Origin: Guillardia theta CCMP2712
Lineage: Eukaryota > Protista > Cryptophyta
Direction of reading: 5' to 3'
Assembly: GCF_000315625.1 (NCBI RefSeq)
Contig: NW_005434392.1
Coordinates: forward strand, 1-33,055
Length of the DNA stretch: 33,055 bases
Of this stretch, positions 234-21,393 are shown one piece after another. Below the pieces are notes generated by a model. The model saw nothing but the letters and a program-made list of their open reading frames with translations, did no database searches and was not told where the DNA came from. The first letter of the stretch is position 1. Each line of letters starts with the position of its first letter. The translations under genes and the position numbers were made by a program.

Positions 234-1321
234 TGAGCCTCTCCATGACCTCAGATGGAAGGTGGGAGGGGATCTGGGGGTATGTTTGCGGTGGGGCTCC
301 CGACGTTACGAGTTTTTTGTAAGGCGGGCCCTGCGGGCCCGCCTCAGTATATATATGAGTCGGATGACACAAGGAGGTATCAGATCAGTCTAGATGGAGG
401 CCAATGAGCCTCTCCATGACCTCAGATGGAAGGTGGGAGGGGATCTGGGGGTATGTTTGCAGTGGGGCTCCCAGCGGGCCCTGCGGGCCCGCCTCAGTAT
501 ATATATGAGTCGGAGGTATCAGATCAGTCTAGATGGAGGCCAATGAGCCTCTCCATGACCTCATATATATGAGTCGGATGACACAAGGAGGTATCAGATC
601 AGTCTAGATGGAGGCCAATGAGCCTCTCCATGACCTCAGATGGAAGGTGGGAGGGGATCTGGGGGTATGTTTGCAGTGGGGCTCCCGACGTTACGAGTTT
701 TTTGTAAGGCGGGCCCTGCGGGCCCGCCTCAGTATATATATGAGTCGGATGACACAAGGAGGTATCAGATCAGTCTAGATGGAGGCCAATGAGCCTCTCC
801 ATGACCTCAGATGGAAGGTGGGAGGGGATCTGGGGGTATGTTTGCGGTGGGGCTCCGCGACGTTACGAGTTTTTTCTAAGGCGGGCCCTGCGGGCCCGCC
901 TCAGTATGTATATGAGTCGGATGACACAAGGAGGTATCAGATCAGTCTAGATGGAGGCCAATGAGCCTCTCCATGACCTCAGATGGAAGGTGGGAGGGGA
1001 TCTGGGGGTATGTTTGCGGTGGGGCTCCCGACGTTACGAGTTTTTTGTAAGGCGGGCCCTGCGGGCCCGCCGCAGTATATATATGAGTCGGATGACACAA
1101 GGAGGTATCAGATCAATCTGGGGGTATGTTTGCAGTGGGGCTCCCGACGTGAGTTTATTGTAAGGCGGGCCCTGCGGGCCCGCCTCAGTATATATATGAG
1201 TCGGATGACACAAGGAGGTATCAGATCATAGTCTAGATGGAGGCCAATGAGCCTCTCCATGACCTCAGATGGAAGGTGGGAGGGGATCTGGGGGTATGTT
1301 TGCAGTGGGGCTCCGCGACGT
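234..1321 (+). repeat. Tandem array A, ~171-bp unit, with internally deleted variants and a GC hairpin
   Basis: TGAGCCTCTCCATGACC recurs at about 234, 405, 544, 619, 790, 962 and 1247 (full periods 171-172). Full units contain AGGCGGGCCC-TGC-GGGCCCGCCT. Confidence 0.95.
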
Positions 1322-1322
1322 A

Positions 1323-1916
1323 ATGATCGGATGGCTTTGTTTTGAAAATGTGAACAGGGACGAGCGACTCCAAATGGGGTTCTTCCAAAAATTTCGTCTG
1401 ACAGCTGATATGCTGCACTCATATTTTGGACAACCAGGAAATACGATCGATTATTTCAAAACCTCTACAGAGCTTTGGATAATCAGAGACACTCTAAAGC
1501 GATGGCTCAATGCTCGTGGAGCTGTTAATTGGAATCCAAGGAAAGCAAGGAGGCTTGACTTCGACATTCATATTCCTGTATTCAATTGCATACTTGCCTT
1601 ATTGCAAAAGGTCCCAATTGATGACAAGCTTGTTACGTGTGCGGGATCAGAAAATGGGAAACAATTCACTTGGTGCATAGATGCAGAATTATTGAAAACT
1701 GCTTTGTTTCAGAGAGAGCTGCACATCCCTCTCAAAGCGAATCCTTATGATTTAGGACCTGCGAGGGGCACTATCTATCTTGAAGGTCCGCTGTATTTTA
1801 CACTCGTTTCCAAGCCTAGCTTGAACGTCGATCGAGCTGTAATTAAAATGAAATTTTCGAGAATCGTGCGATTAGGCTGGAATAATGAAATTATCTGGGA
1901 ATTCCCAGACCCTTGA
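1323..1916 (+). CDS. Intronless hypothetical protein (~197 aa), tail-to-tail with the transposase; possibly 5'-truncated by array A
   Basis: ORF of normal globular composition starting at the ATG right after the array (MIGWLCFEN...WEFPDP). The upstream 18 codons in the ORF track are repeat-derived. No family recognised. Confidence 0.6.
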   Translation: MIGWLCFENVNRDERLQMGFFQKFRLTADMLHSYFGQPGNTIDYFKTSTELWIIRDTLKRWLNARGAVNWNPRKARRLDFDIHIPVFNCILALLQKVPIDDKLVTCAGSENGKQFTWCIDAELLKTALFQRELHIPLKANPYDLGPARGTIYLEGPLYFTLVSKPSLNVDRAVIKMKFSRIVRLGWNNEIIWEFPDP

Positions 1917-2112
1917 CTCTTTTGGCGCTTCGTTTTCTCCGATGATTCTCCCTCCCTTAGTGCTTTGAAGGAGAGTGGAGGGGATAGAACGCAACATACG
2001 TTTACAACGCAGCATACGTTCTAGTAAACGTATGTTCATCGGATTAAGAAGGAGAGCAGAGGGGAAAGGACAAACGATACAGATTAGCCGCAACATACAT
2101 TTACTAGAACAA

Positions 2113-4842
2113 TCAGGTATGAACATCAGGTGTGCATTCGTTGAACGAGTGCAGAGCTAATTCAGACAGAGTGAAGTAAGACTGACAATCCTTCCTTGTT
2201 TTCTCTCCTGCTCCACACGGTCCATGTTCACTCAGGCTTTCGCCTTGCTGCTTCCTTTTCCCGCTCATTGCACAATTAATGGCTGGGATCGAGGTTTTGT
2301 AGCTGTGACGTCCCAAAAGCTGATGACGTCGTTCTACACAAGACAAACTCATCAAACCCATTGGGATTCCAAAAGTATTCCACAAATAGGTAAATTGTTC
2401 TCCAATATGACCCACCATCATCGAGTGCAGGTAGTGACTCTGCAATTGCTTGGAATTTGCGATGAGACAGATGATTTTTGTACACCAACTTCTGATTTCG
2501 ATTGGTAAATTCTGAACATCTTCGCTGCTGATAGCTTCTGAATGCTGGCATGACAAAACTGTGATTATTTGTTTCCATTGCTCAATAGCACTTCTCCACA
2601 ATTGAAGTTTTTCACCATCTGGAACCAACGAAGAAATAAGTGTATCGAAAATACGGATAAACTGATCGCACTGAGGTCCGCTCAGATTCCTTTGCGAATC
2701 CTTGTCCTTCAATACGATCTTGATATTGTTGTCAGCCAATAGCTTGTTGATTGCTGACAACTTGGACCTGTTTACTGCCAGGTGCACGACGTGATTTACC
2801 AACATGTTAACAATCCGAATTTTCAGATGCAACATACAGTAAATGAAATGAATAGTGTCAAAATTTAGTTCTTCAAGATAGCGACATTTTCTGGAGATCT
2901 TCACAGAGCGCAGCAATGGAAGGGAAAGTCCGGCAACGTCAATTTTTTCATCGGGATCTGCGAAGCATTGATTGAGTTTATCTTGATTCGAAGTCGATGC
3001 CAAAGCCTGGAACAGATGCTCGTTGAAATCTTCAATTGGGTTCGTCAAATTGGAACTGTTGGTTTTGAGAATCATGTCGTTCAGTAGCTTAACACTAAGA
3101 GGATCTGTACCATGCATCCTGCAAAGTTCTCGGAAGCTGACTGGCCCACCATTTATCTCCCGAATTTGGAGGAACTTTCCAGATTTCCGATCTGAAGTTT
3201 GTTCACAACAATGAATACAGAAAGTACCGTCTGAGTCGTTTCTGCCCCCGTGACTTAGCAGAGAATTTTGTCCCATTAAATCTGCTCTGAAGAACAAGAC
3301 AAATTTGATGGTAGCATCCCCTATCTTCAAACCATCTCTGAGAATGGATACTATGTCAGGCTGATAGGGCTCCCAGAAATTGAATTTCAGAGTTGCTGTA
3401 GTGTCTGACAAAGGAATTATCATTAGGGTACAAGCGTCCGAAGCTTGTCTTATGCGCTTTTCCTCTTCCGCCCATTGCTGAAGATTTTTGCAATACTTCT
3501 TGGGAACAAACACCGTGAAACTAATTTCTGTATGCTTGGTGTCTCCACCGAGATTCCGGATAAGCAGCGCAGCATCTGAGTTCAAAGTCATAGCAATGAT
3601 GTTCTCACGGTCTAGGCCAAGTTGCTTGAGTTTCATGGTGAGACTAGTTTTGAGACTGAGTCCATGGCCATGGTCTCGAGTGGAAAACATCTTCAAGTTT
3701 TTCTTCAGCCAGATTTTCTTCATGACCCTCGTCTTACAGATTAGCTTCGCAGAAACTGCAACCCTCTTCAATCTTTTCACGTGTGAATGATACGCGATGT
3801 AGGACCTCATAGGCATTCTGGATGCATGCACTCCAGTACATGCTTCATTGACATTCGGCGCGTATGCTCGGGCAACATATTTCAATTTCTTTTCAAATTT
3901 TTCGTCGGTAGGGATTTTTGTTTCAATGCACTTCTTGACGTTCTCATTCTGCATTAGGCCAAGGATAACTTTGTCAATCAACAAAGGGTTCATCCTTGGC
4001 GACACATTTGACTCTTCTCGTGGCCGCAAGCAATTTCCAAGACGTTTCCATAGCTCTTCATGCGGTAGATCTTTCACTCCATGAATGATCGCTACCATCT
4101 GCAACACCTTCAACAAAACTGGGACCATGTATTCATTATATGCAATTTCCAACGCTTCTTGCGCCTCCGGGTCTTCGACATAGTCAAAATTGATGGGGTT
4201 CTCGTGGTGAGGCTTTGAAATTTTCGATTGAATGTCTTGCCAAAACTGATCAAACGTCTTGCAGGGAGGCGCGATTGGCCAATCGGTCAGATTTTCGCCC
4301 ACGCTATTCAAAAATTTGCCAATGTGCGGCTGCCCAGGACACTTCGAATCCTTAGTGTAAACGAAATTTTCGGCATCATCATGAGACAATTCAGGTTGAG
4401 GTTGAGCAGTTGAGAGCTCAGGCTGAGAGCTTGGGAGCTCACTCGAGTCAGGCTGAGAGCTTGGGAGCTCACTCGAGTCAGGCTGAGAGCTTGGGAGCTC
4501 ACTCGAGTCAGGCTGAGAGCTTGGGTGCTCACTCGAGTCAGGCTGAGAGCTTGGGTGCTCACTCGAGTCAGGCTGAGAGCTTGCCAGGCGGCCGGCGCGG
4601 CAGTGACGGCGGCGGCGGCGGTGCTCAGGCTCAGAGCTTGAGAGCTCAGGCTGAGAACAAGGGATATTAAGAATCTCTCTACCATCATCACCCCAATCTG
4701 ATGCCTTGTTGCGCTTCAAAACTCGTTTGACTTGTTGTTTCGCACATTTTCTTTGCTTCCTTGCCACTGGTCGCACTGTCGGAGAGATTGGTATCTTCTT
4801 GGAGGGGTCTTGATGAGGAATAATCTTGCTATGCATGTTCAA
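2113..4842 (-). CDS. DDE transposase, Transib/RAG1/Chapaev-like (CxxC + H..H zinc-binding type), 909 aa, intronless
   Basis: Ordered motifs TLNSDAA (D1), FFRADLMG (D2), FCIHC, CMLHLKIRI, NLSGPQC, HYLHSMMVGH and GLMSLSCVERRHQ (E) parallel the RAG1/Transib core: SCDG, GYDEK, CTLC, ALHC, NGNFAR, YFHKTLAH, GAWASEGNE. Confidence 0.8.
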   Translation of the reverse strand: MNMHSKIIPHQDPSKKIPISPTVRPVARKQRKCAKQQVKRVLKRNKASDWGDDGREILNIPCSQPELSSSEPEHRRRRRHCRAGRLASSQPDSSEHPSSQPDSSEHPSSQPDSSELPSSQPDSSELPSSQPDSSELPSSQPELSTAQPQPELSHDDAENFVYTKDSKCPGQPHIGKFLNSVGENLTDWPIAPPCKTFDQFWQDIQSKISKPHHENPINFDYVEDPEAQEALEIAYNEYMVPVLLKVLQMVAIIHGVKDLPHEELWKRLGNCLRPREESNVSPRMNPLLIDKVILGLMQNENVKKCIETKIPTDEKFEKKLKYVARAYAPNVNEACTGVHASRMPMRSYIAYHSHVKRLKRVAVSAKLICKTRVMKKIWLKKNLKMFSTRDHGHGLSLKTSLTMKLKQLGLDRENIIAMTLNSDAALLIRNLGGDTKHTEISFTVFVPKKYCKNLQQWAEEEKRIRQASDACTLMIIPLSDTTATLKFNFWEPYQPDIVSILRDGLKIGDATIKFVLFFRADLMGQNSLLSHGGRNDSDGTFCIHCCEQTSDRKSGKFLQIREINGGPVSFRELCRMHGTDPLSVKLLNDMILKTNSSNLTNPIEDFNEHLFQALASTSNQDKLNQCFADPDEKIDVAGLSLPLLRSVKISRKCRYLEELNFDTIHFIYCMLHLKIRIVNMLVNHVVHLAVNRSKLSAINKLLADNNIKIVLKDKDSQRNLSGPQCDQFIRIFDTLISSLVPDGEKLQLWRSAIEQWKQIITVLSCQHSEAISSEDVQNLPIEIRSWCTKIICLIANSKQLQSHYLHSMMVGHIGEQFTYLWNTFGIPMGLMSLSCVERRHQLLGRHSYKTSIPAINCAMSGKRKQQGESLSEHGPCGAGEKTRKDCQSYFTLSELALHSFNECTPDVHT
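4418..4583 (-). repeat. 30-bp coding minisatellite (~5.5 copies; SSQPDSSE[H/L]P)
   Basis: TCAGGCTGAGAGCTTGGG(A/T)GCTCACTCGAG repeats every 30 bp from 4418. Confidence 0.95.
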
Positions 4843-5365
4843 CCTCTATCTCAAAGTTCAAATCAGAACACAAGTTTTCTTCCAGAATCTGTACTAGTGC
4901 GTGGACGATACCCAGCCCGCGCAAATTCAAATCCCCAGCTTTTTCAAATAAGTGTCCACGTACCGGTGGTTTGATACACGACTAGGGGGTAGGGTTTGTT
5001 CCCCACCTACCCCGGTGGCCATAACCTCACAACAGGACCGGTGCATAGTCAAACAAGGTACTGTATCAATTCTTTACAGTACAAATATGTATAAACTTTG
5101 TACATATATATACAATTAAAATAAAATAATACGAAGTATGGTACAATTATGCCTAACTATGGTACAAAAAATCTGTACCTTTTATTTGAACAAAAATACA
5201 AGCATTAAAAACAAATTCAACGACCGCTCTGAAACCAATCTACCACCTCTACCCCCCCAAATCCAGTGATAATGACGGGTCATTACCTATAACCGGTACT
5301 AAGACCCAGAGAACTGAGAAAAGCCACTTTTCCTTTGTTTTTCCTGGTCAAAAACCTACAGAATG

Positions 5366-5469
5366 GACGGATCCTGCCGGCCGGGCCCGTCAGTAGACCG
5401 ACTGCAGCCTTCAGCCCCGCCTCAGACCCCCTGGAGGCCCGCCAGGAGGCTAAGTGTCCGGAGATTGGC
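5366..5469 (+). repeat. Repeat B, left part of an interrupted unit
   Basis: GACGGATCCTGCCGGCC...GAGATTGGC matches the corresponding part of the units at ~8185-8288 and ~8506-8609. Confidence 0.95.
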
Positions 5470-7968
5470 CATAGCGTTGCTTTTCCGGCCGGGCGCTCAT
5501 AGGAAAAATTGGCAAGATTTTTTTTTTTTCGAAGGGCCTGTGGGGTCCCTTCATTTCATGCCATGTGGGAGTACCCTACTTTGAGAAGGCGTGTAGGAGG
5601 GTACTCGCTCTTAGGAAAATCGTTGCTGCGCAGGGCCAGAGAGGGGTAGGGTGATTTGAATTTGGTTGCTTGGACACTTCACCACGCCAAACCAAAGTAA
5701 AAGTACGAATTTTAGAAGTATCTGTGGTACCAACTTAATATTGCAGCGTTTATATGGTACAAAACGAGGGCCAAACTGGTCGGAACTTCGACTTCCGAGA
5801 ACCCCTCCGTTTGACTTTCGTTGGGGGGTGGGGTGGGTATGGAGCACCCTCAACTACCCACCTTTGAACCAGTTTGAAACTCTGTGATAGGGGGTAGGGG
5901 GTAGCCCCCATTTCTCATTCCCCAAGCCCCCTCTCCCTGGACGAGCAAGAGGCGATGAAATGGTGCCTTCCTGACTCGCGAGGATGAACCTCGATATTGA
6001 GAGACTTCGAATCCAACCCAACTGAGATAGGAATGAGATGAAGATCTCATATCATACCTGTAAGAGATGATCGAGCTTCTTTCTCAACTCTGCAGGTTGG
6101 GCCAAGGTTTGAATCATCCATCGTGTACTGGAATATGCACCCTAGGTACAAACAATCCGCGTGTGTACTTGAAAATATTCTTCGAAGACAAGATGAAATT
6201 TTCATGAACAGCTAAGCAACTAATGATAGATTCACCATTGAACAGAATCAACTCTGATTGACCCTTCTTTCAAATTGCCGTAGGTTGAACGTTGAGCTCA
6301 AATGCATGATTTGTGAGAAATTTGTATCAAACTGTACCTTAAGCGACTTTGCTGTCTAGATATGTGTTCTCATGTCATCACTCACTTTCAATTCTTCTAG
6401 TCTTACGGTCAGGATTCATGCACCTCACTTTTCTATAGAGAAAGCTTTACATGCTCAACCGTTCAATGATGCATGAAGAGACGTTTGCACAAAGGATTTC
6501 TTTACCTGCCAGGATAGATGACTTTGAATCATCGTTGTTGATCATGAATCACTATACCCATGATCAAGTGGATTGACAATTGCATTTCCATGTTTCATGA
6601 CGTTGGATGATTTTTCTGCACTGCAACTAAGTTCTTCCTTTGTCATGACATTTCCACAACGCTGCAGAAACCTAGTTAGAAATGAAACAATGTGCAGATG
6701 AATCTGATATCAATAAATGAGATGTTCTTCGAATCAATCCTGCCTTGTTTGGACAGTTCGCAATGCTACCATGCAACAGTAGAGTTCTTGTCGCATTTGG
6801 CTCTACAGAGGGGTGCCTTGTTCAACAGAGCAAACACTCGATGATTGTAAACAAGAAGCATGTGACATGTAGCCACATCATAAATGCTGTACGGCCTGGA
6901 ATATCAGCATCTTCAAAGTGCTCGTGTTTGCTGTGACCGTTTCATCTGCTTGGCAGCGGCTCATTGATGGACACACGATCTGATGCAAGTTCACACCAGT
7001 AATATTTAGATGATGCATCATGTGATCAAATGGCATAGACCTTGGTGATTTGCAACATGTTTCATCGTTCCAACACATCCTTGAAAACCGGATGAAGAAT
7101 CCTTCACGAACCACTGGACTTGCTTGTTATCATTCGATAGTGCTGTGGATCATCGTGGTTTCAAGCAATCGAGCAGCTCACTGCTAAAATGCACTGTATT
7201 TCTTGCGAGCCTATCAGCCATCATCGTGAAGACATGTGTTCTTGAGCTCACTGGTGACTGTACGGCTTTTGAACAATCCAGTCACCGTCGGATGATGATT
7301 CCCTGTCGTCTTGTGTGTAATCTCCATCCATCTACTCCAACTCAGTTTCCCTGTCATGCATCGCAGATAGCTTAGGGTATTTCACAACCCGGTTTCGATT
7401 GCAACGTATCCCTGTGATGGTGATTTTCACTTGTATTATTGATGCTCTTCGCTCACCAAACGATTTTTCGTGAGATCCACGCACTGTACGAAGCACTCCT
7501 CAAGGATCATCATCTCTACACCTCAGGAATTTCCCATGAGGAGGTTCGGTGAACATCTGATGTCTGCACACGCTGCCGCGGGCTCGCTGTTTGCGAGCCA
7601 TGGTTAGGGCAGTACAGAGCGGTGCGACGTGCCCCGAACAAGGGGAGGCTCATGGCGTGTAGAGAGGTCGTTCAAACTTGTTTATAAAATTGTACCATAA
7701 GAAGGCTCTACAAATTAGTTAGTCGACTACCCCATGATCTCAGTGCAACTTCTGGGGTGCAGCCCTACTTCTCTGTTTATACTCAACCATTCCACAATAC
7801 AGTTTAAAATATCTTATTGGAAAACAACATCAGAGTTATAAACCTGAAATTTGGACCCTGTTTGAAATCCTCAAACACGCCACCCCCCAATCCACCTAGA
7901 AAGCAGAACAACCCCCTCACGGGAAAACATACAGCCCAAAGCAGAAAAAGCAAAATGTCAACGCTATG
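5470..7968. mobile_element. 2499-bp putative non-autonomous element with 10-bp TIRs and no TSD, inserted in repeat B
   Basis: Left end CATAGCGTTG (5470-5479) and right end CAACGCTATG (7959-7968). Flanks GAGATTGGC + CGGGGGCCTGAT rebuild exactly the uninterrupted B junction seen at ~8280-8300 and ~8601-8621. Confidence 0.85.
5950..7653 (-). CDS. Probable intron-dense gene of unknown function (micro-exons); exact model not resolved
   Basis: Minus-strand GTGAG...AG pairs of intron size (~7412-7456, ~7211-7251, ~7143-7181 and more). Candidate ATG in GCCATGA context at 7653. No long ORF. Confidence 0.45.
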
Positions 7969-8826
7969 CGGGGGCCTGATCTCTCCGGGCGGCCGTGACC
8001 GGTCAGCGGACCGTGTCAGCAGGCCCGTGACATGTCAGCCGGCTGACAGGGGCCGTGACCCGGCTGACAGGCTCACCTGACCGGTCACGTGACCGAGACA
8101 AGACTTTTTTATATCGCAGATCCAAAAACCCATAGGACATTTCTCCCAGGGGGAAGAAAACCTCCCTTGACCCCCCTGTTTCTCGACGGATCCTGCCGGC
8201 CGGGCCCGTCAGTAGACCGACTGCAGCCTTCAGCCCCGCCTCAGACCCCCTGGAGGCCCGCCAGGAGGCTAAGTGTCCGGAGATTGGCCGGGGGCCTGAT
8301 CTCTCCGGGCGGCCGTGACCGGTCAGCGGACCGTGTCAGCAGGCCCGTGACATGTCAGCCGGCTGACAGGGGCCGTGACCCGGCTGACAGGCTCACCTGA
8401 CCGGTCACGTGACCGAGACAAGACTTTTTTTATATCGCAGATCCAAAAACCCATAGGACATTTCTCCCAGGGGGAAGAAAACCTCCCTTGACCCCCCTGT
8501 TTCTCGACGGATCCTGCCGGCCGGGCCCGTCAGTAGACCGACTGCAGCCTTCAGCCCCGCCTCAGACCCCCTGGAGGCCCGCCAGGAGGCTAAGTGTCCG
8601 GAGATTGGCCGGGGGCCTGATCTCTCCGGGCGGCCGTGACCGGTCAGCGGACCGTGTCAGCAGGCCCGTGACATGTCAGCCGGCTGACAGGGTCCGTGAC
8701 CCGGCTGACAGGCTCACCTGACCGGTCACGTGACACATCACGTGACCGAGACAAGACTTTTTTTATATCGCAGATCCAAAAACCCATAGGACATTTCTCC
8801 CAGGGGGAAAAAAACCTCCCTTGACC
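7969..8826 (+). repeat. Tandem array B, ~320-bp unit (~2.7 copies), rich in TGAC/GTCA palindromes
   Basis: GGGGGCCTGATCTCTCC at 7970, 8290 and 8611 (periods 320 and 321). Internal palindromes include TGACCGGTCA, TGACATGTCA and TGTCAGCCGGCTGACA. Confidence 0.95.
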
Positions 8827-8874
8827 CGCCTTAGAAAAAACTCGTAACGTCGGGAGCCCCACTGCAAACATACC
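8825..8874 (-). repeat. Inverted fragment of repeat A fused to the end of array B
   Basis: Reverse complement GGTATGTTTGCAGTGGGGCTCCCGACGTTACGAGTTTTTTCTAAGGCGGG matches array A. Confidence 0.9.
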
Positions 8875-9017
8875 GAAGATCAGGAGCCTGGCCCGATTTC
8901 AGAGGTCATGTGATGGGTGAGGAGGTGTTCCGAAGCCCACAAGTACCTGACCAAGGCGAATGCGCAACCGCAACGATCCGCCATGAAAGCAACGCCGAAA
9001 TGGCTAAGTGTGAAAGA

Positions 9018-9039
9018 CCTGGTACAAATTTGTACCAGG
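9018..9039. repeat. Perfect 22-bp palindrome CCTGGTACAAATTTGTACCAGG
   Basis: Self-complementary, and built from two copies of the GGTACAA motif that recurs near module ends. Confidence 0.85.
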
Positions 9040-9313
9040 CATGAGTACCATGATTGTCAGGGAACTTGAGTGAAATCTCTGGATATCCGGTACAGTCCTT
9101 TTGTACCAGTAAATACGTCCTACAACAGTAATAAACTGCGCTTCTTTTTTTTTCGTGAAGTATAACCCTTTTCAAGGTTGCGCCCTGAGCTCAATGCTTT
9201 TATAGTTTCAACACAGTATGACCAACACGCCGGGTAAAACAGCTAGTCCATAACGCAACAAACCGGCAATTCAAAAAAAATTCATTTAAAGCCAAAATAT
9301 TTCAGTCAACAAT

Positions 9314-10615
9314 ATGGGTTTGTCCATGTCTGAAGAGGCCGAAGATTGGAAGATATCATTCACAGCTGAATGGAACAAGAGGAAGTCATCAAGGTTGCCA
9401 TCAAATGCAGTCTTTCCTTTGGCTGAGAACCCTTTCGGCTCTGCAGAAATTCTTGCCATGGCGGAGGTTTTACTATCTGGGAAGTTAACAATGGGAGAAA
9501 ACGTCTCTGAAGCTGAAGAATTGTTTGCTCGAACAGTTTCTGTACCATATGCTTGCATGGTCAACAGTGGGAGTTCTGCAAATCTCCTTGCATTAGCATG
9601 CTTAAAACATCGCTTCATGGAAGCAAATCAAAACTGGGAAATTTTGATACCAGCTGTATGTTGGTCAACGAGTCTTTTCCCCATTGTTCAGCAGGGATTT
9701 ACTCCAAGGTTTGTTGACGTTGATCCCAGGACGATGAATATGTCCCTTCAAAGCTTGCAAAACGCGATGAACCCAAATGTCAAGGCAATCATGGCCGTGC
9801 ATGTTCTTGGTAACTCGATTTGCATGCAAGACTTGATGAATTTTGTTAAACAACATGATTTGGTTTTGATTGAAGATACTTGTGAATCTCTTGGATCTTA
9901 CTGCTGTGTTGATGGTGAGAAATGCATGCTTGGTACATTAGGATCGTTCGGGACATTCTCGTTTTACTTTTCCCATCACATAACTTCAGGTGAAGGAGGA
10001 ATGTTGGTTTGTCAAAATGAAGCAGATTACAATCTTGCGGTCTGTCTCAGAGCACATGGTTGGTCAAGACAACTCAGCAACAAAGAAGCTATTGAGAAAC
10101 TATACCCTGATATCGACCCTCGCTTCCTTTTTCTGAACGCAGGGTACAATCTAAGACCAATGGAAGTACAAGGAGCAATGTTAAAGGTTCAACTGGCAAG
10201 GCTAAGTGAATTCAATGAATGCCGGCGAAACAACTTTCGCCGTATCTCAGAAGCTATCAATAGCAGCCCAGGACTTCGAGGCAAAATCCAGTTGATGGAA
10301 GCTTCAGATGGAACTGATCCTGCATGGTTCGGTCTTGCCTGTTTGTTGTGTCCCACGTACACTCATCAGCTCAAAGACTTTCTTGCATATTTGATTGAAA
10401 TGGGTGTTGAAAACAGACCAATCATAAGCGGCAATTTTCTTCGACAACCCTTTGTCAAGCAGAACTTATCTCCGCTGAATCCGTCTGATTTTCCGGGTGC
10501 TGAGGTCGTGCATTCAGCAGGATTCTTTATTGGAATTCACCAGATCCCGATTCCTGACGAAAGAATTACTGAGTTGATTCGGACATTTCAATCATTCAGC
10601 TTCCGTGAATTGTGA
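9314..10615 (+). CDS. DegT/DnrJ/EryC1/StrS-family PLP enzyme, ColD/E1-like nucleotide-sugar 3-dehydratase, intronless
   Basis: Motifs VNSGSSANLLA, PAVCWST, AVHVLGN, IEDTCESLG, GYNLRP and RPIISGN. FSFYFSHHITSGEGG has His at the position of the aminotransferase Lys, as in ColD and E1 dehydratases. Confidence 0.9.
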   Translation: MGLSMSEEAEDWKISFTAEWNKRKSSRLPSNAVFPLAENPFGSAEILAMAEVLLSGKLTMGENVSEAEELFARTVSVPYACMVNSGSSANLLALACLKHRFMEANQNWEILIPAVCWSTSLFPIVQQGFTPRFVDVDPRTMNMSLQSLQNAMNPNVKAIMAVHVLGNSICMQDLMNFVKQHDLVLIEDTCESLGSYCCVDGEKCMLGTLGSFGTFSFYFSHHITSGEGGMLVCQNEADYNLAVCLRAHGWSRQLSNKEAIEKLYPDIDPRFLFLNAGYNLRPMEVQGAMLKVQLARLSEFNECRRNNFRRISEAINSSPGLRGKIQLMEASDGTDPAWFGLACLLCPTYTHQLKDFLAYLIEMGVENRPIISGNFLRQPFVKQNLSPLNPSDFPGAEVVHSAGFFIGIHQIPIPDERITELIRTFQSFSFREL

Positions 10616-10979
10616 AGCAGCTTTCTCACTGTCTTCCCATTTTCATTCCTGTGTGGTAGTTGCTCTGCAATTAAAGTACGAAATGGAATTGCAAATGAAA
10701 GCTAAACAAACACTGATGTGTCTCAACTGTACCTCATGCCCATTCAATGAAATTATCACTCGCTGAGGATAAATCCGTACGCGATAGTTGCTCAGTCTGC
10801 GGGATTATTGTCACGGACAGGGAAGAAAATATCTTCAAATTGATACCTTATCTTCAGCCTAAAACAGCTTAGTCCCATGACTAGTGGCAGTGGCAGGAAG
10901 CAAAGGTGATGAGGTAGTTTTGGGGTTCAGGACGAGAGAGGGGAGATATTCTAAGGAAAGAATCGTTCTTTGGTTTGTC

Positions 10980-11605
10980 TTTGCGAGCAAGTTTCCTCAA
11001 CCGGTTTTCTTAGGTACGGTCTCTTGGAGTTAGCGAAACGAAAGAACGATGAAGATCCATTTTGGATTCCAAGTCCCAATGCAAGATTCAAACAGATCGA
11101 AGCCGCATACGTCTTGGATATATTACAACATCGCAAACATGATGAATAAGATGCCGAACAGTCTCAATGTGATCAATCTCTACAAGAACTGCACGATCAG
11201 CAGCCACAAGGAAACAAAGTATGTATCCGAGTAACCAAGGATATATCCGACTTCAGCAGGATGATACCGGAAGACACAGAGAGGATACAGATACACCTCG
11301 CTGAAGTCCTTATGGATTTCATATGACCATGCCAGGAGGATTTGACGAAAGATCCGATGGTCAAGGCGGAAAGCCTGGATATAGACCATGCTCTCCAGGC
11401 GATAGTGAAACTCACCAACCTTGTTAAGAGCGTGCAGCGAGAGAATTGTTTACTCTTATCTTTTCACACTCTTGGCGGAAGCCAAGGTTCGATCGAACCT
11501 GTCAGAGCTCATAGGAACCGAGCCCGAGTCAGACAAAGGCCTATCAGGATGAAAGGACAGTTGGCTGTCTCGTACTCGTGTTCGAAGCTGACTTCTCCTG
11601 GATGA
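10980..11605 (+). pseudogene. Possible decayed coding sequence
   Basis: One frame reads GFLRYGLLELAKRKNDEDPFWIP...KHDE*...LMDFI*PCQEDLTKDPMVKAESLDIDHALQAIV..., long but with two internal stops. No family recognised. Confidence 0.3.
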
Positions 11606-12050
11606 CCCAGGATACTCTACTCCAGTATGAATCTACTGAAAGGACCCCTCTGGAGGTCTTTGTTGCAGCAACCGTGTACTCGTGGGGGACCTACAAGGTA
11701 AACAGGAGGGGTGCGTCTTGTGGAGTACGACCCGTTGGAAGCAGCTTGCTGCCATGCAAGGACGGGGTTCTCTTCCCTGCGAGAGAGCATGGTATCCTTT
11801 CGAAGGTCAGAAGGGATGCTTGTCAACTTCCAAGGACAGGACACCCCTCCTTTCTGTAGCCCAGAGACGCTACCCCTGGCTCCTTCCTCGAAGCTATAAA
11901 AGGATGAAACTCGTCAGAGCTAGGCTAGGTGGTCCTCTTCCCCTTTCGTGTGTGTTCCACGATTGTGTGTGTGTGTGTGTGTGTGTGAAAGAAATAAAAG
12001 AGAGGTAGATCTCCTTCTGTTTCACCGCTTTCCCTCTTAGTAGAGAAATC

Positions 12051-12116
12051 CATAGACAGATCTGAGAGCCTGCATAGACAGATCTGAGAGCCTGATAGAC
12101 AGATCTGAGAGCCTGC
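12051..12116 (+). repeat. 22-bp tandem repeat x3 (CATAGACAGATCTGAGAGCCTG)
   Basis: Three near-identical consecutive copies. Confidence 0.9.
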
Positions 12117-12131
12117 AGGGTCCTCCGCGTG

Positions 12132-12243
12132 ATATATATGCTGAGGCGGGCCCGGTCGCGGGACTTAGCGTAGAAAACGGCAACGGATCCTGCCGGCCGG
12201 GCCCGTCAGTAGACCGACTGCAGCCTTCAGCCCCGCCTCAGAC
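12132..12243. repeat. Inverted repeat-A fragment (12132-12154) plus truncated repeat B (12183-12243)
   Basis: ATATATATGCTGAGGCGGGCCCG is the reverse complement of the A hairpin arm and tail (1 mismatch). ACGGATCCTGCC...CCTCAGAC matches B. Confidence 0.9.
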
Positions 12244-13042
12244 CATTCCATGGCATTTACTAATGCCCAATTATAAATTAATATCCTTTTAACAAACACT
12301 TGTACCTGTTAATTTGATCATAAGCGTACAGTTTTTAGTCAATTTTGTACCAGATCCATTTGTACCACTCAGTACTCTTTTATATTTGTTTTAAGCATTT
12401 GAGTTCCGGCTTACACGCCTCTTGGCTGTTCTCTACCCTGTGTACCGGTATGTTTGTCTGATATGGAGGGGGTAGGGTTATTCGTATATTTCGATACACG
12501 CCCATGAAATCTTATTAGTGTCAGCCATTGACGAGTGTAGTAAATCCAGCCAATAAGTATTTTTGTTTTCAAATCAAGGAGTCGTACGTCAGCTAGCAAC
12601 GGCAATCTTTTTTTTCCTGTACCGGTTATTTTTCCATTACCTACCCTATGTGTTGTAGGGTACTTCTGGAACACAGGTTCCCATGTTTCCAATCAAACAG
12701 CAATTAGCTAGCGTTTTCAGGATTTTTCCTAGTTCAAATCCCTGTCCGCCGGATTTCCTGAAATCCCAAACTTTATTAAAACTATTTTAGGGGTGCGGAA
12801 TCTGAGTACCCCTACTTTTGCGGGTTGACAGAGGGGATATCATATTTGTAAAAATTTATTGAAAAACATCATGACCAAAACAGGAAATTTCAATTAGAGA
12901 TTTTTTTTCACTCAACTCTGGACCTCTAATTGCTCCTACCCCCTAAATCCTGAGCCTCCTGCGTAGTAGTTTATTGCAGCCCACGGCCCCCTCCACCCCC
13001 CACCCCCCCTTTCATACCTGCAACCCGCGCAAATCGCTCAGC

Positions 13043-15250
13043 ATGGCCACAGCCGCTGGATCACAAGGTAGCCGTCAGAAATGCTTGTTCGGTTCACGAT
13101 GCAAGGTTAGGGACGACGCAGCTCAACTGTATCAATGTACTGTCTGCTCAAACCTGTTTCATCATCTTTGTGCTAGTGAATGGAGTGAAGAGTGGAGTGA
13201 TTGTGGTTGCTCGACTCGCAACCCAAAAGGAACAAAGGGACCAAAAACTTCAGCGCAGCAGCAAACCCCAAAAGTTGTTCCTTCCATCTCTGAAGAACAA
13301 ATCGCGGAATCAATTGTGGAATACGTTTCAGGGACTAACAGAACTAGACGGGTATGCAACAAGGAGAACGATCACGACGCAGACGGAGTTGCAGAGAGAG
13401 AGGTAGGCGGAGACGAAGCCTCGGACGAAGACGAAGACGAAGAAGACGACGACGACGAGGACGATAACGAGGAAGTGGAGGAAATGGAAGGCGAGGACGA
13501 ACAAGAAACAAGAGAAAAAATCGAGTCTGTCAAAGACAGGATGCTCTCGGACAATTCGAAGGCATGTTACTTGAGTTCTGTAAGTCAGCTGATTGCATGG
13601 TTGTATGAAACCAAACCATTTTGTTTGAATCACGAATTCAAGAGTTGTTTAGACAACGAACCCAGAAATCGTGGTCCAATTACCAAGAAGATCAAAGAAT
13701 TGTTGAAGAGAAGAGAATTGTTACCATTCAACACGAGAAGGTTCTCATACAAGCAATGGACCAGCTATGTGGTAAATGTCATGATGAAGAAAAAGTTGAA
13801 ATTCTCGTCATACGTAGCTTTGAGATCAGGTGTTAGGCATTTCTATAGAAGGCACCACAAGACCAAAACGTACAGGAGAAAGTTCGACGTTCAGATAGCC
13901 GATTTCTATAAAGGTCTTCAGAACACCATCGCAGATGAGAGAGCCGTGAGTGGAACGAAATTGTCATCTGGCAAGGATCCATTACCCTTTAGTTTGTATG
14001 TCATAATGGGTGGAGAGTTGCTGAAATGTAAAAAGATGGATTTAATAGTTGGTCGTACCTTCCTGATACTAAGTTGGAATCTGATCTGCAGATCTGTCAA
14101 TACGGCTGAGATTCTGTTTCAACACATGGGATGGAAAGACGATCACATGTGGATATGTTTTCCTCATAGCAAGACAGATCAAGTTGGAGAACGGAACGAG
14201 CCGAAATCAATATATGCCAATCCGATCTGTCCTGCAATTTGCCCCATTCTTGCTATGGGTGTGTACCTTATGAGTCATTCTCCAGACACCAGGAAGTTGT
14301 TTCCAGGTGTACTTGGCATGAAATGTGGTTGATACTGATGCATTTTTTGGGCATGATAGGTGGCAGTCAATACCATCGTTTTGTCAATTGTCTGCAGAAA
14401 GTCATGACACTGCCCGAACGGGGTGAGTGTGATGAATCTTCTAGCGCACAGGATGCTCCGTATGATTACCGAGCCATTCGGAAAGCTGTCTGTCAGGAGC
14501 TGCAAAGACTTGGGATGAACAAGGAGGATTTAGGCACCCACTCCATTCGAAAGGTGAGATATTGATTGATGATGTGAAGATTGTTTGAACCCTACGTGTA
14601 GGGTGCAGCGACGTATTGTACAAGTGGTTCTACTCACTGTCCATCAGTTACCGCGGTTTCTGACCGAGCCAGTTGGAACAACGGAACAATTCCCAAGACT
14701 TACTTCAAGTACGAGGCTGCATCAGATCTGTTTGTTGGTCGTACGGCCTGTGGATTACCCATTCATTCGGCGATGTTTGCGTCATTACCTCCACAGTTCA
14801 AGAAGGGAAATGATGAATTAGTACAGAGTACGATTCAGTTATGTTTTCCTACATTGCCAGGGAATATGAATGGGATTCTGATACATTGCTTAGCAAGCAT
14901 TGTGTATCATTTCGATTACTTGAGAAAGGAGTTGGACCCCAGTCATCCATTATGGAGCTGCGCATTGTTTCGGGATACTGGAATTTATGAACAGCTGAAA
15001 GAGCAAGTTTTAGTTCTGCTTCCTACAGACGTACCCACAGAGATGAATGAAAGTTCCGAGAACATGATGTGCACTGTGCAGGTTCCCATTTATCGTAGTA
15101 CTGGATGTCCGCCTCATGTCACATCACTGGTTCACGAAAAGCAGTGGATGATGAAGACACAACTTTTGCAAGAGAAGCTTGATCAAGTGGTGGCAGGCAA
15201 TGAACAGCTGGTGGCAGCCAATGAACAGCTGGTGGCAGCCAATGAACAGC
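13043..15250 (+). CDS. Crypton-type tyrosine recombinase with N-terminal Cys/His zinc finger; 3' end uncertain
   Basis: Removing introns 14307-14359 and 14554-14601 (both GT-AG) gives WNLICRS, SKTDQ, IYANP-ICPILA, LFPG|GSQYHRF, GTHSIRK|GAATY, RASW and KTYFKYEAASDLFVGR. This is an intact R-K-HxxR-W-Y set, followed by LPPQF and TGCPPHV as in CryptonS/F-like recombinases. Confidence 0.88.
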
Positions 15251-15358
15251 TGAGACTGAAGCAAGACAGCAGCTGGATAAGAAGACGATTAAGAGAGAAA
15301 GCATCCTTGAGGAAAGATCTCTTCCTCCTCTTCCTCTGCTTCCTCTTCCTCTTCCTCT

Positions 15359-15392
<34 letters not shown>

Positions 15393-17298
15393 TCTCTTAT
15401 CTCCTCTTTCTCCTGCTCCTCCTTTCTTCTCCTGCTCTTGCTCCTTCTCTTATCTCCTCCTCTTTCTCCTGCTCCTCCTTTCTTCTCCTGCTCCTTTTCC
15501 TTCCTCCTCCTCCTCCTCCTCCTCCTCCTCCTCCTCCTCCTCCTCCTCTACTACTCCTTCTCATCCTACTCCAGTCCTCCTCTCCTCTTCTCATGATTGC
15601 AGCAGATTCTCGGCTCTCAGTCGCTGTCAGAGAAACAGATACTGAGCGGGGTGGGAGACAGCAGATACGCGAGGTCAGCGAGGGGAGGTGGAAGACAAGA
15701 CCATGTCATTCAGTTCACCAGAGGAGGAGAGGCCAGCGGCAAGGATGGGGGGAAGGAAGGGGAGAGTGAGAGGGAGGGGAGGGAGGGGAGGAGAAAGGGA
15801 AGAGAATGGCCAGAAGAAGGTCATGACATGGGAAGGGGTTTTGATCAATCCATCAGGGAGATTCTACGAAGACTTTGCACGGAAGGAAAAATCTACAGAA
15901 CAGGCTTGTAGCCTCCTCCTCTCGATCTTCTCTCGCTTTACCCTCTTCCTCTCCTCTCTGGTTCCGCCAAACTTGTCCTCCACTGTCATTTCTACGCCAA
16001 TCTCTCCTCCCCTCTCCCCTCCCCTCCCTCTCCCCTCCCCTCCCCTCCTATCCTCTTCTCTTCCCTTCCCTCTTCTTTCCTCTCCCCTCCCCTTTTCTTC
16101 CCCTTCTCTCCCCTCCACTTTCCCGCCCTCCCAATTCCCCTCCTTCCTCCGGAGCCCACCTGAATCCCAGCAGGACGAGGAGGAGCGAGTGATCCCTACA
16201 AGTACACAGCTGCTCCCTACTACGACGGGCCGGACAAGCTGCCGGAGGGGGTGGTACCTCAGGTGGGATTCAGCTGGGAGGGAGCGGGTCGGCCTGACGG
16301 TCATGTGCAGGTCCCGATTGAAGTCAGGTTGCAGAGGATCGCAAACAAGATCGAGAGACTTCTCAGCTCGGGTAGAGCTGGACCCTCCCATCTCTTCCAT
16401 TTCCTCCTCCTCCTCCTCCTCCTCCTACCTCCTCCTCCTCCTCCTCCTCCACTCCTCCTCCTCCTCCTCCTCCTCCTCCTCCTCCTCCTCCTCCTCCTCC
16501 TCCTCCTCCTCCTCCTCCTCCTCCTCCTCCTCCTCCTCCTCGACTATCACCTTCTCATCTCCAGGCTCCTCGTCCTCTTCTTGTCCTCCCCCTCCTCCTT
16601 GTTTTCCTCTTCACCTCTCACGTTTATTCCTTCGCAGGTGAAAATCTTACTGAACGTGAGATTCGTGATTCAGTAGGTGATAACGTTGGGACGGGGAAGG
16701 TGCAGAATGAATACACCTCCACCACCACCACCACCTCCTCCTCCTCCTCCTCCTCCTCCACCTCCTCCTCCACCTCTTACTCCTCCACCTCCACCTCCTC
16801 CTCCACCTCCTCCTCTACCTTACCCTAGTTCCCGTCCCCCTCTTCGTCTCTCTCTCCTCGTCTCTCCCTCTCTCTCTCCCTCTGATTTCTGTCTTGTCTT
16901 GTCTCTCACTCCACAGGCTCTTCGCGTCCTTTTGCGTCTTGGACGGATAAGAAGGTAAAATCCCTTCCACCTCCTTATCTTGATCCTCTCCTTCCTTTCT
17001 CAGCTCGCTCCCCTTCCTACTTGCCCTCCCAGATCTCTCTTCCCTCCATCCCTTCTTGCTCTCACTCCTTGCTCCTGCCTCCCCTCCCCTCCTGCACCCC
17101 ATGCTCCTCCCGCTTCTGTGTCAAGACTTGCTACTCAGGTTCGGCAAGGGAGGAGGCAATGGTGCATTCCGCTACAGCAAGAGCGACTTGCTCGACTCTC
17201 CTGACAACGAGGACCTCTCCTCCTGCACCCTCCCTGCCGCTCCCCTCGACCGCCTCCACATCCCCCTCGAGCCTCCGAAGAAGCACGGAGGCAGCTGA
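15250..17298 (+). CDS. Multi-exon protein with two winged-HTH-like repeats; no independent start visible
   Basis: Exons 15603-15673, 15857-15903, 16174-16371, 16638-16699, 16917-16954 and 17139-17298 splice in frame. They give SEKQILSGVGDSRYAREILRRLCTEGKIYRTGRGGASDPYKY and TEREIRDSVGDNVGTGKALRVLLRLGRIRRFGKGGGNGAFRY, resembling a small plant/algal HTH motif (recalled as G[DN]xPDTSKALR...GxGGxxDP[FY]xY). Confidence 0.75.
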
Positions 17299-19125: not shown

Positions 19126-20059
19126 CTGCCTTCACTTCAGTCGTCTGGTGTACATTGCTTCCGAATCCCCAGAATAGATGATGATTTGAACCGGATCAAA
19201 TCCTGCATAAATCGGTTCAAGTCTGTCACTCATTTCAGTGACCGACCCCGGCCGGGCCCGATATAACGGGCTCGCCTCAGCAGGATGCCATTTTCTGGAA
19301 TTGAAGGTACCCTACCCTATTCTTTTAGTATTCAAGAATCAGAAAATAACCCCTCCAACTGCTTGGGCCTCAACTACACCCTACCCCCTGTGTGGATGTA
19401 CCAAAACAACCGGTAGGTCATGTCTCCAGAATGCAGGGGAACAATGGCTGCCCTGACTTGGGGAGGGGAAGGAGGAGATAGAGAAGGAGAAGAATATGGC
19501 GCGGGGACGACATGGGCAGAGGGAAGTATGAAGTGTAGATACGGAATGGTAGAGCGCTGAATGAGCAGAGAGATGAGAGATACATCATGTCTCGACGCGC
19601 GAGGGAAGGGACGGGCGAGACAAACTATCTTGTCTGCCAAGGAGTGAGGAGGGAATAGAAGCGCAGCAGCATTCACTGCGCCCTTGAGCATGCGTTTGAA
19701 TTATCCTCTTGCTATGACATCACCAAATAGCAACGTAAAGGAGCATGCTCCAAGAATGCCGAACAGTGAAAAACTAGAATTCATCATGCGGTTGAAATAG
19801 AAGGCGAAGGGAGGAGTTGAAAATGTCGATATGCAGTACAATGTGTGGGGTTTTATCACATCATGAAAACCATAGTTGTTTTACAAGAATATCAGACTTT
19901 CAGCATAAGTCACTTTCATGGCAAGGTTCCACGTATATGAAAAAAAGGTGCTCATTTTGAAACTCCGGAGCAGAACGCATGGCTGCAAACGGCATCTACT
20001 CGGTGATCTTGTGCCACTTGCAAAAGCTCAGTCTTACATCCATGTAGGGATGTGGTGGG

Positions 20060-21393
20060 ATGCGGGGCCTCTGTCTCATCTTGCTGGTTCAGTGCTGCGC
20101 TGTAGAGATCATTGCCAATGGTGCGCTGACAAGCTCTTGGAGTCAGGCAGACGGTAGACATGACCTTGTCTTGTCGGCCTTGCCTGACTTGGCATGCGGA
20201 AAAGAGTCGAGGCGTCAAACTGCTATCAAAAAGCGCTCCCCGCTGATCGGGATGAGGCTGAGAGGAGGCTCGCAAGAAGACGAGAAGGATTACTATAAAG
20301 TTCTCGGTGTATCAAGGTAAACGCTGATCGATGAGCTGGAATGTTGCGTGCCGGCTGAAGTTGAGGACGCAGAGATTGCACGGCAGACGAGGTCCGAAAG
20401 GCTTACAGGTGCGATGCGACCAAGCTGACCTGGCGGTCCTGACCGGAACGTTGTGCAGAAAGCTTGCACTGAAGCTGCATCCGGACAAGAATCCAAACAA
20501 CCGAGAGGAGGCTGAGAGAAAGTTCAAGCTTCTCAGTGAAGCTTACGATGTTCTCTCTGACCCCAACAAACGCAAAATGTACGACACGTACGGTGCCAGC
20601 GGCTTGAGGTATGCATGAATTGTCCCTCGATACCTCACCCTGTCTCTCTTGAATTGGAATTTCCGAATGAGCTGAATCCCTTTCTATCAGTGGAGACGCG
20701 GAAGGCTTCGGAGACTTCAACTTCAGGTCTGCGGAGGACATCTTTGCTGAAGTATTTGGTTCAAGGTTTCGTACATCCTCATTTGAAGGCTCCAATCTAA
20801 AGCTTGACAGGAACCCCTTTGAAATCTTTGAACAAGCTTTTGGTGGCAGCATGTTTGGTTCAAGGGGCAGGTTTTATCCCTTCTGGGTAACACGTTCTTT
20901 GTCATGAGATTCTGAGTGCAGAAATTCCGGAAGTGGAGGTTTTTTTGACGATTTCTTTGGTACATTGATCTTGTCTGGTGGGTTCAAGGAAATTGACAGT
21001 GTTTCTTCTCAGGAATGAGTGGTTTGTTTCTCAAGTCCTCCCCGTTCGACCCATGTGAGAAAACTTGCCTTAGGCATGGGGGGGGGCTCGTTCTCCTCCT
21101 TCACCTCTACATCATCGGGAGGGTTCGGAGGCGTCAGCATCTCCACGTCGACCGTGATAAGGAACGGCCAGAAAGTCACCAAGACAGTGAAGAAGTATGC
21201 TGACGGAAGGACGGAAGAAGAAGAGGTCCACGAGGGTCCTTCGGGAAGGTTTGACAGGGAGCGGTGCTGTTACTGGGAGGTTGAAACGTGCACAGCAGCA
21301 GAAGGATCAACCATTCCTCCAACTATCTGAGTGGTGAGCCTGGAGCGGCTGACCCTCCTGGTTCATGAGTTTCGCTGCAGGGGGGCACCATAA
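20060..21393 (+). CDS. DnaJ/Hsp40 co-chaperone (DNAJB6-like, G/F-rich) with signal-like leader ending RLRGG; multi-exon
   Basis: [45 protein letters not shown]-rich exons, then [14 protein letters not shown]. Probable stop at 21391-21393. Confidence 0.88.

Follow-up and report, generated by a model that had tools for sequence, protein, structure and literature searches.

We describe a satellite-rich locus of Guillardia theta CCMP2712 that carries transposable elements with CAT ends. The window analyzed is the whole of contig NW_005434392.1 (33,055 nt), which we studied mainly over positions 1200-15400. In this stretch a GC-rich tandem repeat, satellite B, is interrupted by DNA with CAT termini. 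The locus holds elements with mapped boundaries, one complete element inserted with zero duplication of target bases, and an intact enzyme of RAG1 fold within a CAT-ended element of two genes. Boundaries were mapped by aligning contigs of three DNA runs (X1, X2, and X6) and the reads of one RNA run, of which 6% was sampled, to positions 1200-15400. The boundary statements draw on 24 of the 19,311 aligned pieces, 15 of the 26 joints, and 24 of the 441 loose ends. For contig records on the minus strand, record_from was taken as the high coordinate, which fits record 3 stopping at 4369, a position at which another copy (P0069) has extra residues. Summed contig depth is not equivalent to copy number and is used for rank order only. 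The features on which the argument rests are as follows.

1323 to 1916, plus strand: 3' part (197 aa) of open reading frame 2 (ORF2), the convergent partner of the transposase; about 430 aa when whole, of no known family.
2113 to 4836, minus strand: DDE transposase of RAG1/Transib fold, an intact open frame of 907 aa with D421, D519, C540-x2-C543, H804-x5-H810, and E835.
4846 to 5365, minus strand: promoter side and terminal part of the autonomous element, with CATTCTGTAG as its first letters from 5365; inserted in satellite B at C|G.
5366 to 5469, plus strand: piece of satellite B (104 bp) between two insertions, 100% identical to 8185-8288.
5470 to 7968, strand unassigned: complete multi-copy element of 2,499 bp with a 10-bp terminal inverted repeat (TIR), CATAGCGTTG at 5470 and inverted at 7968; inserted in satellite B at C|C, with no target-site duplication (TSD) relative to the empty site.
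7969 to 8831, plus strand: satellite B, 2.7 copies of a 321-bp unit, 64% GC, at a depth thousands of times that of single-copy DNA.
8982 to 9143, plus strand: CAT-starting multi-copy end CATGAAAGC leading into single-copy DNA; target C|C.
12183 to 12243, plus strand: piece of satellite B (61 bp), preceded by a diverged inverted piece of satellite A (12096-12154).
12244 to 12650, plus strand: family of ends that start with CAT, CATTCCATGG, present in more copies than the tyrosine recombinase (YR) gene that follows; similarity to other copies stops near 12650 at ATG.

Satellite B meets non-satellite DNA at four places in the window, which represent three independent events, and CAT reads inward at all four, with the strings quoted by the first-pass annotation lying where it had placed them. 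CAT occurs in module DNA at a frequency of 0.020 per position. The probability that two further independent junctions would match by chance is therefore about 4e-4 (1.6e-3 with one base of slack), or about 7e-5 for three further junctions when 8982 is included. Contigs stop or diverge at these positions. X1 record 4 ends exactly at 5365, where X2 record 12 also ceases to match and continues with 163 other letters; X6 record 21 matches exactly as far as 7968 and continues with 27 other letters; and X6 record 23 ends at 12243, covering 12243-12651 before it diverges. The CAT junctions are thus transposon termini, as had been claimed from the sequence. At 8982, 12 RNA reads leave the window into sequence starting with C (agreement 0.53), which supports the junction itself. 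The flank before it, which had been called B-like, has no BLASTN match to satellite B and is a different flank. The junction of satellite A at 1321/1322 has no CAT and is a truncation.

The base before the cut is C at all five insertion sites seen or inferred. The inferred site comes from a contig of single-copy depth, found in both X1 and X2, that joins 7857 to 12241. The 2.5-kb element reads GAC|CCTG at 7857, and positions 12241-12243 are GAC. This joint points to another end of the 12244 type, inserted at C|C within a copy of the 2.5-kb element and outside satellite B.

The element at 5470-7968 provides the direct test of target duplication. Its flanks rejoin exactly to intact satellite B sequence, which is itself found twice in the neighboring array, with nothing duplicated or lost; the earlier claim of a complete element without a TSD is upheld. 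The TIR and the target share a single C, and a 1-bp duplication can be read only if the two ends are asymmetric. The summed depth of this element is about 6,000, compared with 68 for single-copy DNA, in X1 and about 200 compared with 5 in X2. In X1 it ranks above the 12244 end (about 1,460), most of the YR gene (290-440), the transposase element (180-340), and the interior of the dehydratase module described below (68). RNA reads cover its interior on both strands. A Pfam scan of the interior gave no match above threshold in 39 fragments, and a scan of 57 of 95 stop-to-stop fragments from the interior plus 10620-12060 gave one sub-threshold RING match; profiles of the transposase and ORF2 found nothing in the same two regions. 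The statement that each module carries a different gene needs correction for 5470-7968, where no gene could be named. Its TIR end pattern had no matches in viral contigs.

The ends also share internal sequences, including those that had been listed before. The 13-mer AGGGGGTAGGGTT is common to the transposase end (4984-4996) and the YR end (12467-12479), GAGTACCC is present at 5569 and 12804, and the 12-mer GATTTGAATTTG links the transposase end with the 2.5-kb element, in whose left end it lies in the same orientation. Across five ends, GGTACA occurs 14 times, compared with a mean of 1.5 and a maximum of 6 in 200 dinucleotide shuffles. By the same measure, GGGTAG occurs 12 times (mean 1.4, maximum 4) and GATTTGAA five times (mean 0.1, maximum 2), and 10 nine-mers are common to at least three ends (mean 0.2, maximum 2). 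A search for second ends of the dehydratase, YR, and transposase modules, allowing two mismatches, yielded none that stood out as a boundary; a loose pairing score, under which the true TIR pair was not ranked, was not used.

Two further stretches, 19164-19600 and 22950-23540, are AT-richer and contain clusters of GGTAC, GGGTAGG, and ACCGGT like those of the element ends, each upstream of an open reading frame. The first has a collinear relative in run X7, and both may be promoters or parts of other repeats. Within the first, a 145-bp candidate (19289-19433; CAT...ATG, at C|C) for a miniature inverted-repeat transposable element (MITE) was rejected, as a contig of run X7 with 55 differences in 437 letters aligns through both supposed ends, with TG replacing CA. 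No multi-copy cover of 19289-19433 was seen in X1, X2, or X6, although the filter can hide contigs.

The AlphaFold model of the transposase (pLDDT, the model's confidence score, 81) is most similar to RAG1 (Foldseek E 2e-9; VIA Z 22.2, root mean square deviation 4.2 over 431 aligned residues), and then to Transib (VIA Z 14.6) and the P-element transposase (VIA Z 14.5). RAG1 clusters came first in the Atlas ranking at 0.95, with a recognition score below the Atlas's own bar. Searches with the sequence in PDB and Pfam returned nothing. The residues conserved in the alignment are D421, D519, C540-x2-C543, C667-x2-H670, H804-x5-H810, and E835; the histidine pair is H-x5-H in the cryptophyte proteins and H-x4-H in three distant relatives (P0058, P0065, and P0066). 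A word search returned no more than a near-identical copy and two Hanusia phi proteins at 42%, and a profile search found 33 proteins. Among the relatives looked up, seven distinct transposase subfamilies have members named as G. theta, annotated 'hypothetical protein'; their loci include GUITHDRAFT_110778, 162260, 149260, and 114463. In a quick 15-row tree built from the family's own matches only, G. theta sequences are interleaved with those of Hanusia. No relatives of the transposase or the YR were found in viral contigs. The N-terminus of the transposase contains a 30-bp coding tandem repeat of 5.5 copies (4418-4583; SSQPDSSELP), whose copy number varies among paralogs, and other copies of the transposase have 22 extra residues at 4369 (e.g., P0069).

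Three metagenome contigs (L001, L002, and L003) encode two other transposase subfamilies, and in both subfamilies a second gene, homologous to 1323-1916, lies tail to tail with the transposase. ORF2 is 31% identical to a 426-aa open reading frame in L002 (E 2e-26) and also has a match in L003. Because the contigs with transposase and partner genes are 4,883-4,969 bases long, the whole element is probably about 4.9 kb, and the copy in the window would lack about 0.9 kb, including the second end, at satellite A. Another copy of the element extends 213 nt past 1324 with other DNA (X1 record 1). The order GGTACAA, GGGTAGGGT, GATTTGAATTT is repeated upstream of the transposases in L001 and L003. 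Candidate ends are C|CATGTC in L003, at a step in GC content from 0.57 to 0.42, and ATG|C in L002, nine bases from the end of the contig. At 880-3200, L003 also contains a transposase of another subfamily in decayed form, interrupted by in-frame stops, and an ORF2 partner with a frameshift. ORF2 gave no match in Pfam, NCBIfam, or the Atlas and none by fold, and RAG2 is not among the fold matches listed. Its model has a mean pLDDT of 48, with residues 1-200 unreliable and only the C-terminal 160 residues reliable; its best Z score is 6.6, to unrelated folds, and no kelch propeller was seen. RNA reads are present over the 3' end of ORF2.

The remaining features lie around the two other CAT-starting ends and at the left edge of the locus.

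234 to 1321, plus strand: satellite A, a degenerate tandem array with a 171-bp unit; cuts off the left part of the transposase element.
9314 to 10615, plus strand: ColD-like deoxysugar 3-dehydratase, pyridoxal or pyridoxamine phosphate-dependent (DegT/DnrJ), intact, intronless, 433 aa, single copy; candidate cargo.
11500 to 12052, plus strand: repeat resembling a long terminal repeat (LTR), 553 bp, TG...CA, high-copy, with unmatched flanks.
13043 to 15270, plus strand: Crypton-type tyrosine recombinase gene, truncated on its 3' side near 15270; encodes a PHD-like finger at the N-terminus and retains the R/K/HxxR/Y residues, with two short introns inferred.

At the ColD-like module, single-copy contigs start at 9114 (X1) and 9144 (X2), behind a multi-copy CAT end of about 160 bp. 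The multi-copy end thus leads into single-copy DNA, consistent with the cassette-like organization that had been suggested for this module. The gene matches PF01041 (E 1e-64), with ColD (2gms) as its best PDB match (E 7e-72); its depth is 68, and RNA reads lie at its 3' end. The best phage matches of the protein are about 30-32% identical, with no close donor. The far side of the module runs into the LTR-like repeat, beyond which no second end was found. That repeat is transcribed, and a contig joins another copy of it to satellite B at 8149.

The CAT end at 12244 and the YR gene differ in abundance, with an X1 depth of 1,464 at 12502 compared with 290-440 over most of the gene. The sequence near 12650 ends in ATG and, read inward, resembles other ends; candidate readings of 12244-12650 are a MITE of 407 bp, an end shared with other copies whose interior was swapped, and the site of a nested Crypton. 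TATGT at 12647-12651, which resembles the CryptonS terminus TATGG (PMC3212892), could mark a separately inserted Crypton. The catalytic motifs of the YR are ICRS, HSKT, HSIRK, and TYFKY, and its relatives are oomycete Crypton-type proteins and proteins of G. theta, one of which, from CCMP2712, is 99% identical; GUITHDRAFT_101130 and 121198 are other YR copies. The copy breaks near 15270, where paralog P0090 continues for about 280 aa. Since the 12244 family matches other copies only to 12651, the YR gene is not demonstrably cargo. Both the YR and ColD-like genes are candidate cargo at most, because a second end is visible for neither module. At 13043-13210 the YR has a PHD-like Cys/His finger and an acidic stretch, which it shares with G. 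theta paralogs and which were not found in the five non-cryptophyte relatives read; the finger may read chromatin.

Satellite B had been regarded as a landing pad for the modules, a view weakened by its very high copy number, its joint to the LTR-like repeat, and the CAT end implied outside it. The insertions lie at three different positions of the B unit. None of three further B junctions seen in contigs has a CAT end (two are low-depth, perhaps chimeric X6 loose ends, and one is the joint to the LTR-like repeat), so satellite B receives other DNA too. CC, GG, and CG make up 32% of its dinucleotides, and each unit (e.g., 7994-8089) contains an imperfect internal palindrome of about 96 bp that is 75% self-complementary. 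Inverted pieces of satellite A adjoin satellite B at 8825-8874 and 12096-12154. Contigs carry the A-B junction on into full satellite A, and the two satellites are therefore a composite array; CCCGCCTCAG is present in both. The satellite B pattern had no matches in viral contigs or genome contigs. Metagenome runs X7, X9, X10, and X12, three of them labelled freshwater, runoff, or lake, contain 20-33% of the words of 4800-9300, which may reflect satellite carry-over or a close relative. At 20280-21330 on the plus strand lies a spliced host gene, read by eye, with the motifs YKVLGV...HPDKNP...AYDVLSD, which we take to be DnaJ-like.

We interpret the locus as a block of satellite DNA that holds several independently inserted transposons with CAT...ATG ends, together with fragments of such transposons; their likely mover is the RAG1-fold DDE transposase encoded there, which is predicted to act without duplicating target bases. 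We give this interpretation a probability of roughly 60%. By analogy with RAG and Transib, the transposase would bind the CAT ends and the subterminal motifs GGTACA, GGGGTAGGGT, and GATTTGAA, and would cut out a blunt-ended element. RAG and Transib excise blunt-ended elements, and their structures show how a 5-bp stagger arises. Here, both element ends would be joined to directly opposite target bonds, so that no bases are duplicated, as has been proposed for Spy (PMC4122938). Insertion would occur 3' of a C, mostly at C|C or C|G. Such a preference would favor a 64%-GC satellite without dedicated targeting and might explain why the insertions cluster. The 2.5-kb element, together with the 8982 and 12244 ends, would represent non-autonomous relatives mobilized in trans, and the YR and ColD-like genes would be passengers or neighbors, not drivers. 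Three of the four modules would later have been cut by rearrangement, by satellite A at 1322, the LTR-like repeat at 11500-12052, and the break at 15270. We further infer that this transposase family moves all of the CAT-ended elements.

Several observations weigh against this interpretation. Insertion without a TSD is seen at one of one complete insertion, and the failed candidate at 19289-19433 had been the second proposed complete element of this kind. The second end of the transposase element was never observed, and the transposase is almost without RNA reads (depth ≤0.09). The 2.5-kb element has no recognizable transposase, and its tie to the DDE enzyme is through end motifs only. These motifs are all located upstream of transcription units and might function in promoters instead of as binding sites; clusters of GGTAC and GGGTAG also occur at 19300-19410 and 23100-23520 and so are not exclusive to CAT ends. 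The termini diverge after CAT (CATTCTG, CATAGCG, CATGAAA, and CATTCCA), which makes the CAT ends different families or subfamilies. The first flank base is not fixed, since matching contigs that carry other flanks break off exactly at 5365 and 7968.

The strongest competitor, which we consider a real but clearly less probable account, is that these are ordinary transposons of the CMCT clade with short TSDs of 2-5 bp, and that the missing TSD at 5470/7968 is a one-off, caused by imprecise repair or recombination between satellite units, or that another, unseen enzyme moves only the 2.5-kb element. Published CMCT lineages do make 2-5 bp TSDs (PMC12730594), just one complete insertion is at hand now that 19289-19433 has failed, and unequal exchange is plausible at a site in a tandem array. 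However, both flanks match intact satellite B right up to the outermost bases of a perfect TIR, without gain or loss, and losing exactly the TSD would require a crossover at the very edge of the element.

It is highly improbable that, with the CAT ends themselves real, the order and adjacency of the modules are artifacts of mis-assembly across satellite arrays or of chance juxtaposition. The start of the 33-kb scaffold is satellite with an N gap, the stretch is not bridged by any contig, and three modules are cut off, but the element boundaries recur in contigs of independent runs, and the flanks at 5470/7968 are in exact phase with satellite B, unlike a random join. The proposal of the first-pass annotation that a Crypton-type YR excises and integrates the modules, with satellite B as attachment site, is largely refuted and the least probable of all: YR integration leaves no TSD (PMC12220804), the YR here keeps its catalytic residues, is covered by RNA reads, and is located 800 bp from a CAT end, and the joined ends of the 2.5-kb element would form a palindrome, but the ends and target have 1 bp in common rather than a 4-6 bp direct repeat, TIRs, which Cryptons lack, are present, the insertions fall at three B-unit positions and at non-B sites instead of one attachment site, the 12244 family stops matching at 12651, so that the YR may not belong to that family, and the YR copy is truncated.

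A broader proposal, which we offer tentatively and hold to be somewhat less than an even bet, is that cryptophytes harbor a superfamily, so far undescribed, of RAG1-fold transposons that have two genes and enter the target behind a cytosine with zero stagger, with a conserved non-RAG2 partner as cofactor and non-autonomous CAT-ended derivatives that bring whole genes, such as a Crypton recombinase and a deoxysugar dehydratase of bacterial type, into satellite DNA. Such a superfamily would give the RAG/Transib/CACTA clade its first branch that lacks a TSD and would follow Spy as only the second cut-and-paste group without one. The geometry of the strand-transfer complex determines how long the TSD is, and this length serves in defining superfamilies of transposons; a zero-stagger relative with a RAG1 fold, if true, would permit a direct comparison of what sets the spacing of the stagger. 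A blunt, footprint-free integrase, if true, could be a useful tool. The second gene, tail to tail and unlike RAG2 in appearance, bears on the question of whether RAG1-like enzymes took on partners repeatedly, and annotation based on TSDs would miss elements that make none. Should the TSD-less rule fail, an ordinary CMCT lineage without a name would remain, in a satellite block rich in transposons. The literature searched contained no description of a cryptophyte CAT-ended RAG1-fold family; Repbase and most subscription journals lay outside this search, and the family may be catalogued there.

Among known systems, the YR at 13043 resembles CryptonS and CryptonF in its oomycete relatives of Crypton type and its R-H-R-Y residues. 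Cryptons have terminal direct repeats of 4-6 bp and no TIRs (Kojima and Jurka 2011, PMC3212892), in contrast to the 10-bp TIR and 1-bp overlap of the 2.5-kb element, and therefore do not explain the CAT ends. The same source describes MarCry-1_FO, in which a Crypton YR lies inside a TIR transposon moved by its own DDE enzyme (PMC3212892). Pack-TYPE and Pack-CACTA elements, known from plants, make TSDs and capture DNA through neighboring insertions (Gisby and Catoni 2022, PMC8903248). They are similar in that their ends are repeated and their interiors more unique; at this locus, entire genes without introns are found next to single multi-copy CAT ends, with no second end seen. Spy elements have TIRs and a DDE enzyme, move by cut and paste, and leave no TSD as judged from paralogous empty sites, and blunt strand transfer was proposed for them (Han et al. 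2014, PMC4122938). The absence of a TSD at the empty site is shared by one of one complete elements here. Spy belongs to the PIF/Harbinger-ISL2EU group, occurs in invertebrates, and has a PHIS-type transposase, AAA|TTT targets, and GGA ends, whereas the present family, from an alga, pairs a RAG1 fold with CAT ends and with targets of the form C|S.

The P element has a THAP domain and a TSD of 7-8 bp. The present transposase has no THAP match, its Z score to the P-element enzyme is 14.5 compared with 22 for RAG1, and no TSD was seen. The Transib and RAG-like (RAGL) transposons are closer, with RAG1 and then Transib as the best structural matches, a microalgal host, and, as in ProtoRAG, two genes arranged tail to tail. 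They differ in TIRs that start with CAC and resemble recombination signal sequences, where the present ends start with CAT, in their 5-bp TSD, and in sequence, with identities of about 10-13%; no kelch propeller of the RAGL kind was seen in the low-confidence model of the partner. A RAGL element is already known from an alga, namely AanRAGL, whose ends are CAC and whose TSD measures 5 bp (Tao et al. 2022, PMC9435367), and the supplement of that paper has no Guillardia, Hanusia, or Cryptophyta entry.

The nearest relatives are found in the CMCT clade, which comprises EnSpm/CACTA, Mirage, Chapaev, Transib, Plavaka, and ESTA, along with Lanisha (Kojima 2025, PMC12730594). Its lineages have CA..TG termini and TSDs of 2-5 bp, and the termini of PlavakaB, CATCA..TGATG, come nearest to the CAT ends (PMC12730594); no Guillardia entry is present in the supplement. 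The elements described here share with this clade a DDE triad of RNase H fold (D421, D519, and E835) that is conserved across subfamilies, the RAG1/Transib fold, an exact C540-x2-C543, a histidine pair that varies by one residue (H-x5-H compared with H(3-4)H), and CA..TG termini, seen at the single known end of the transposase element and at either end of the 2.5-kb element. They differ in a partner gene of no known family and in the TSD, which is 2-5 bp in the members and 0 bp at the sole complete element here, a contrast that leaves out the terminal features of Lanisha (PMC8245031). By fold and motifs the enzyme goes with the CMCT transposases; because the clade is characterized by a TSD and the complete element has none, we regard the CAT-ended elements as CMCT-type transposons that deviate in this respect, and do not place them in a named superfamily.

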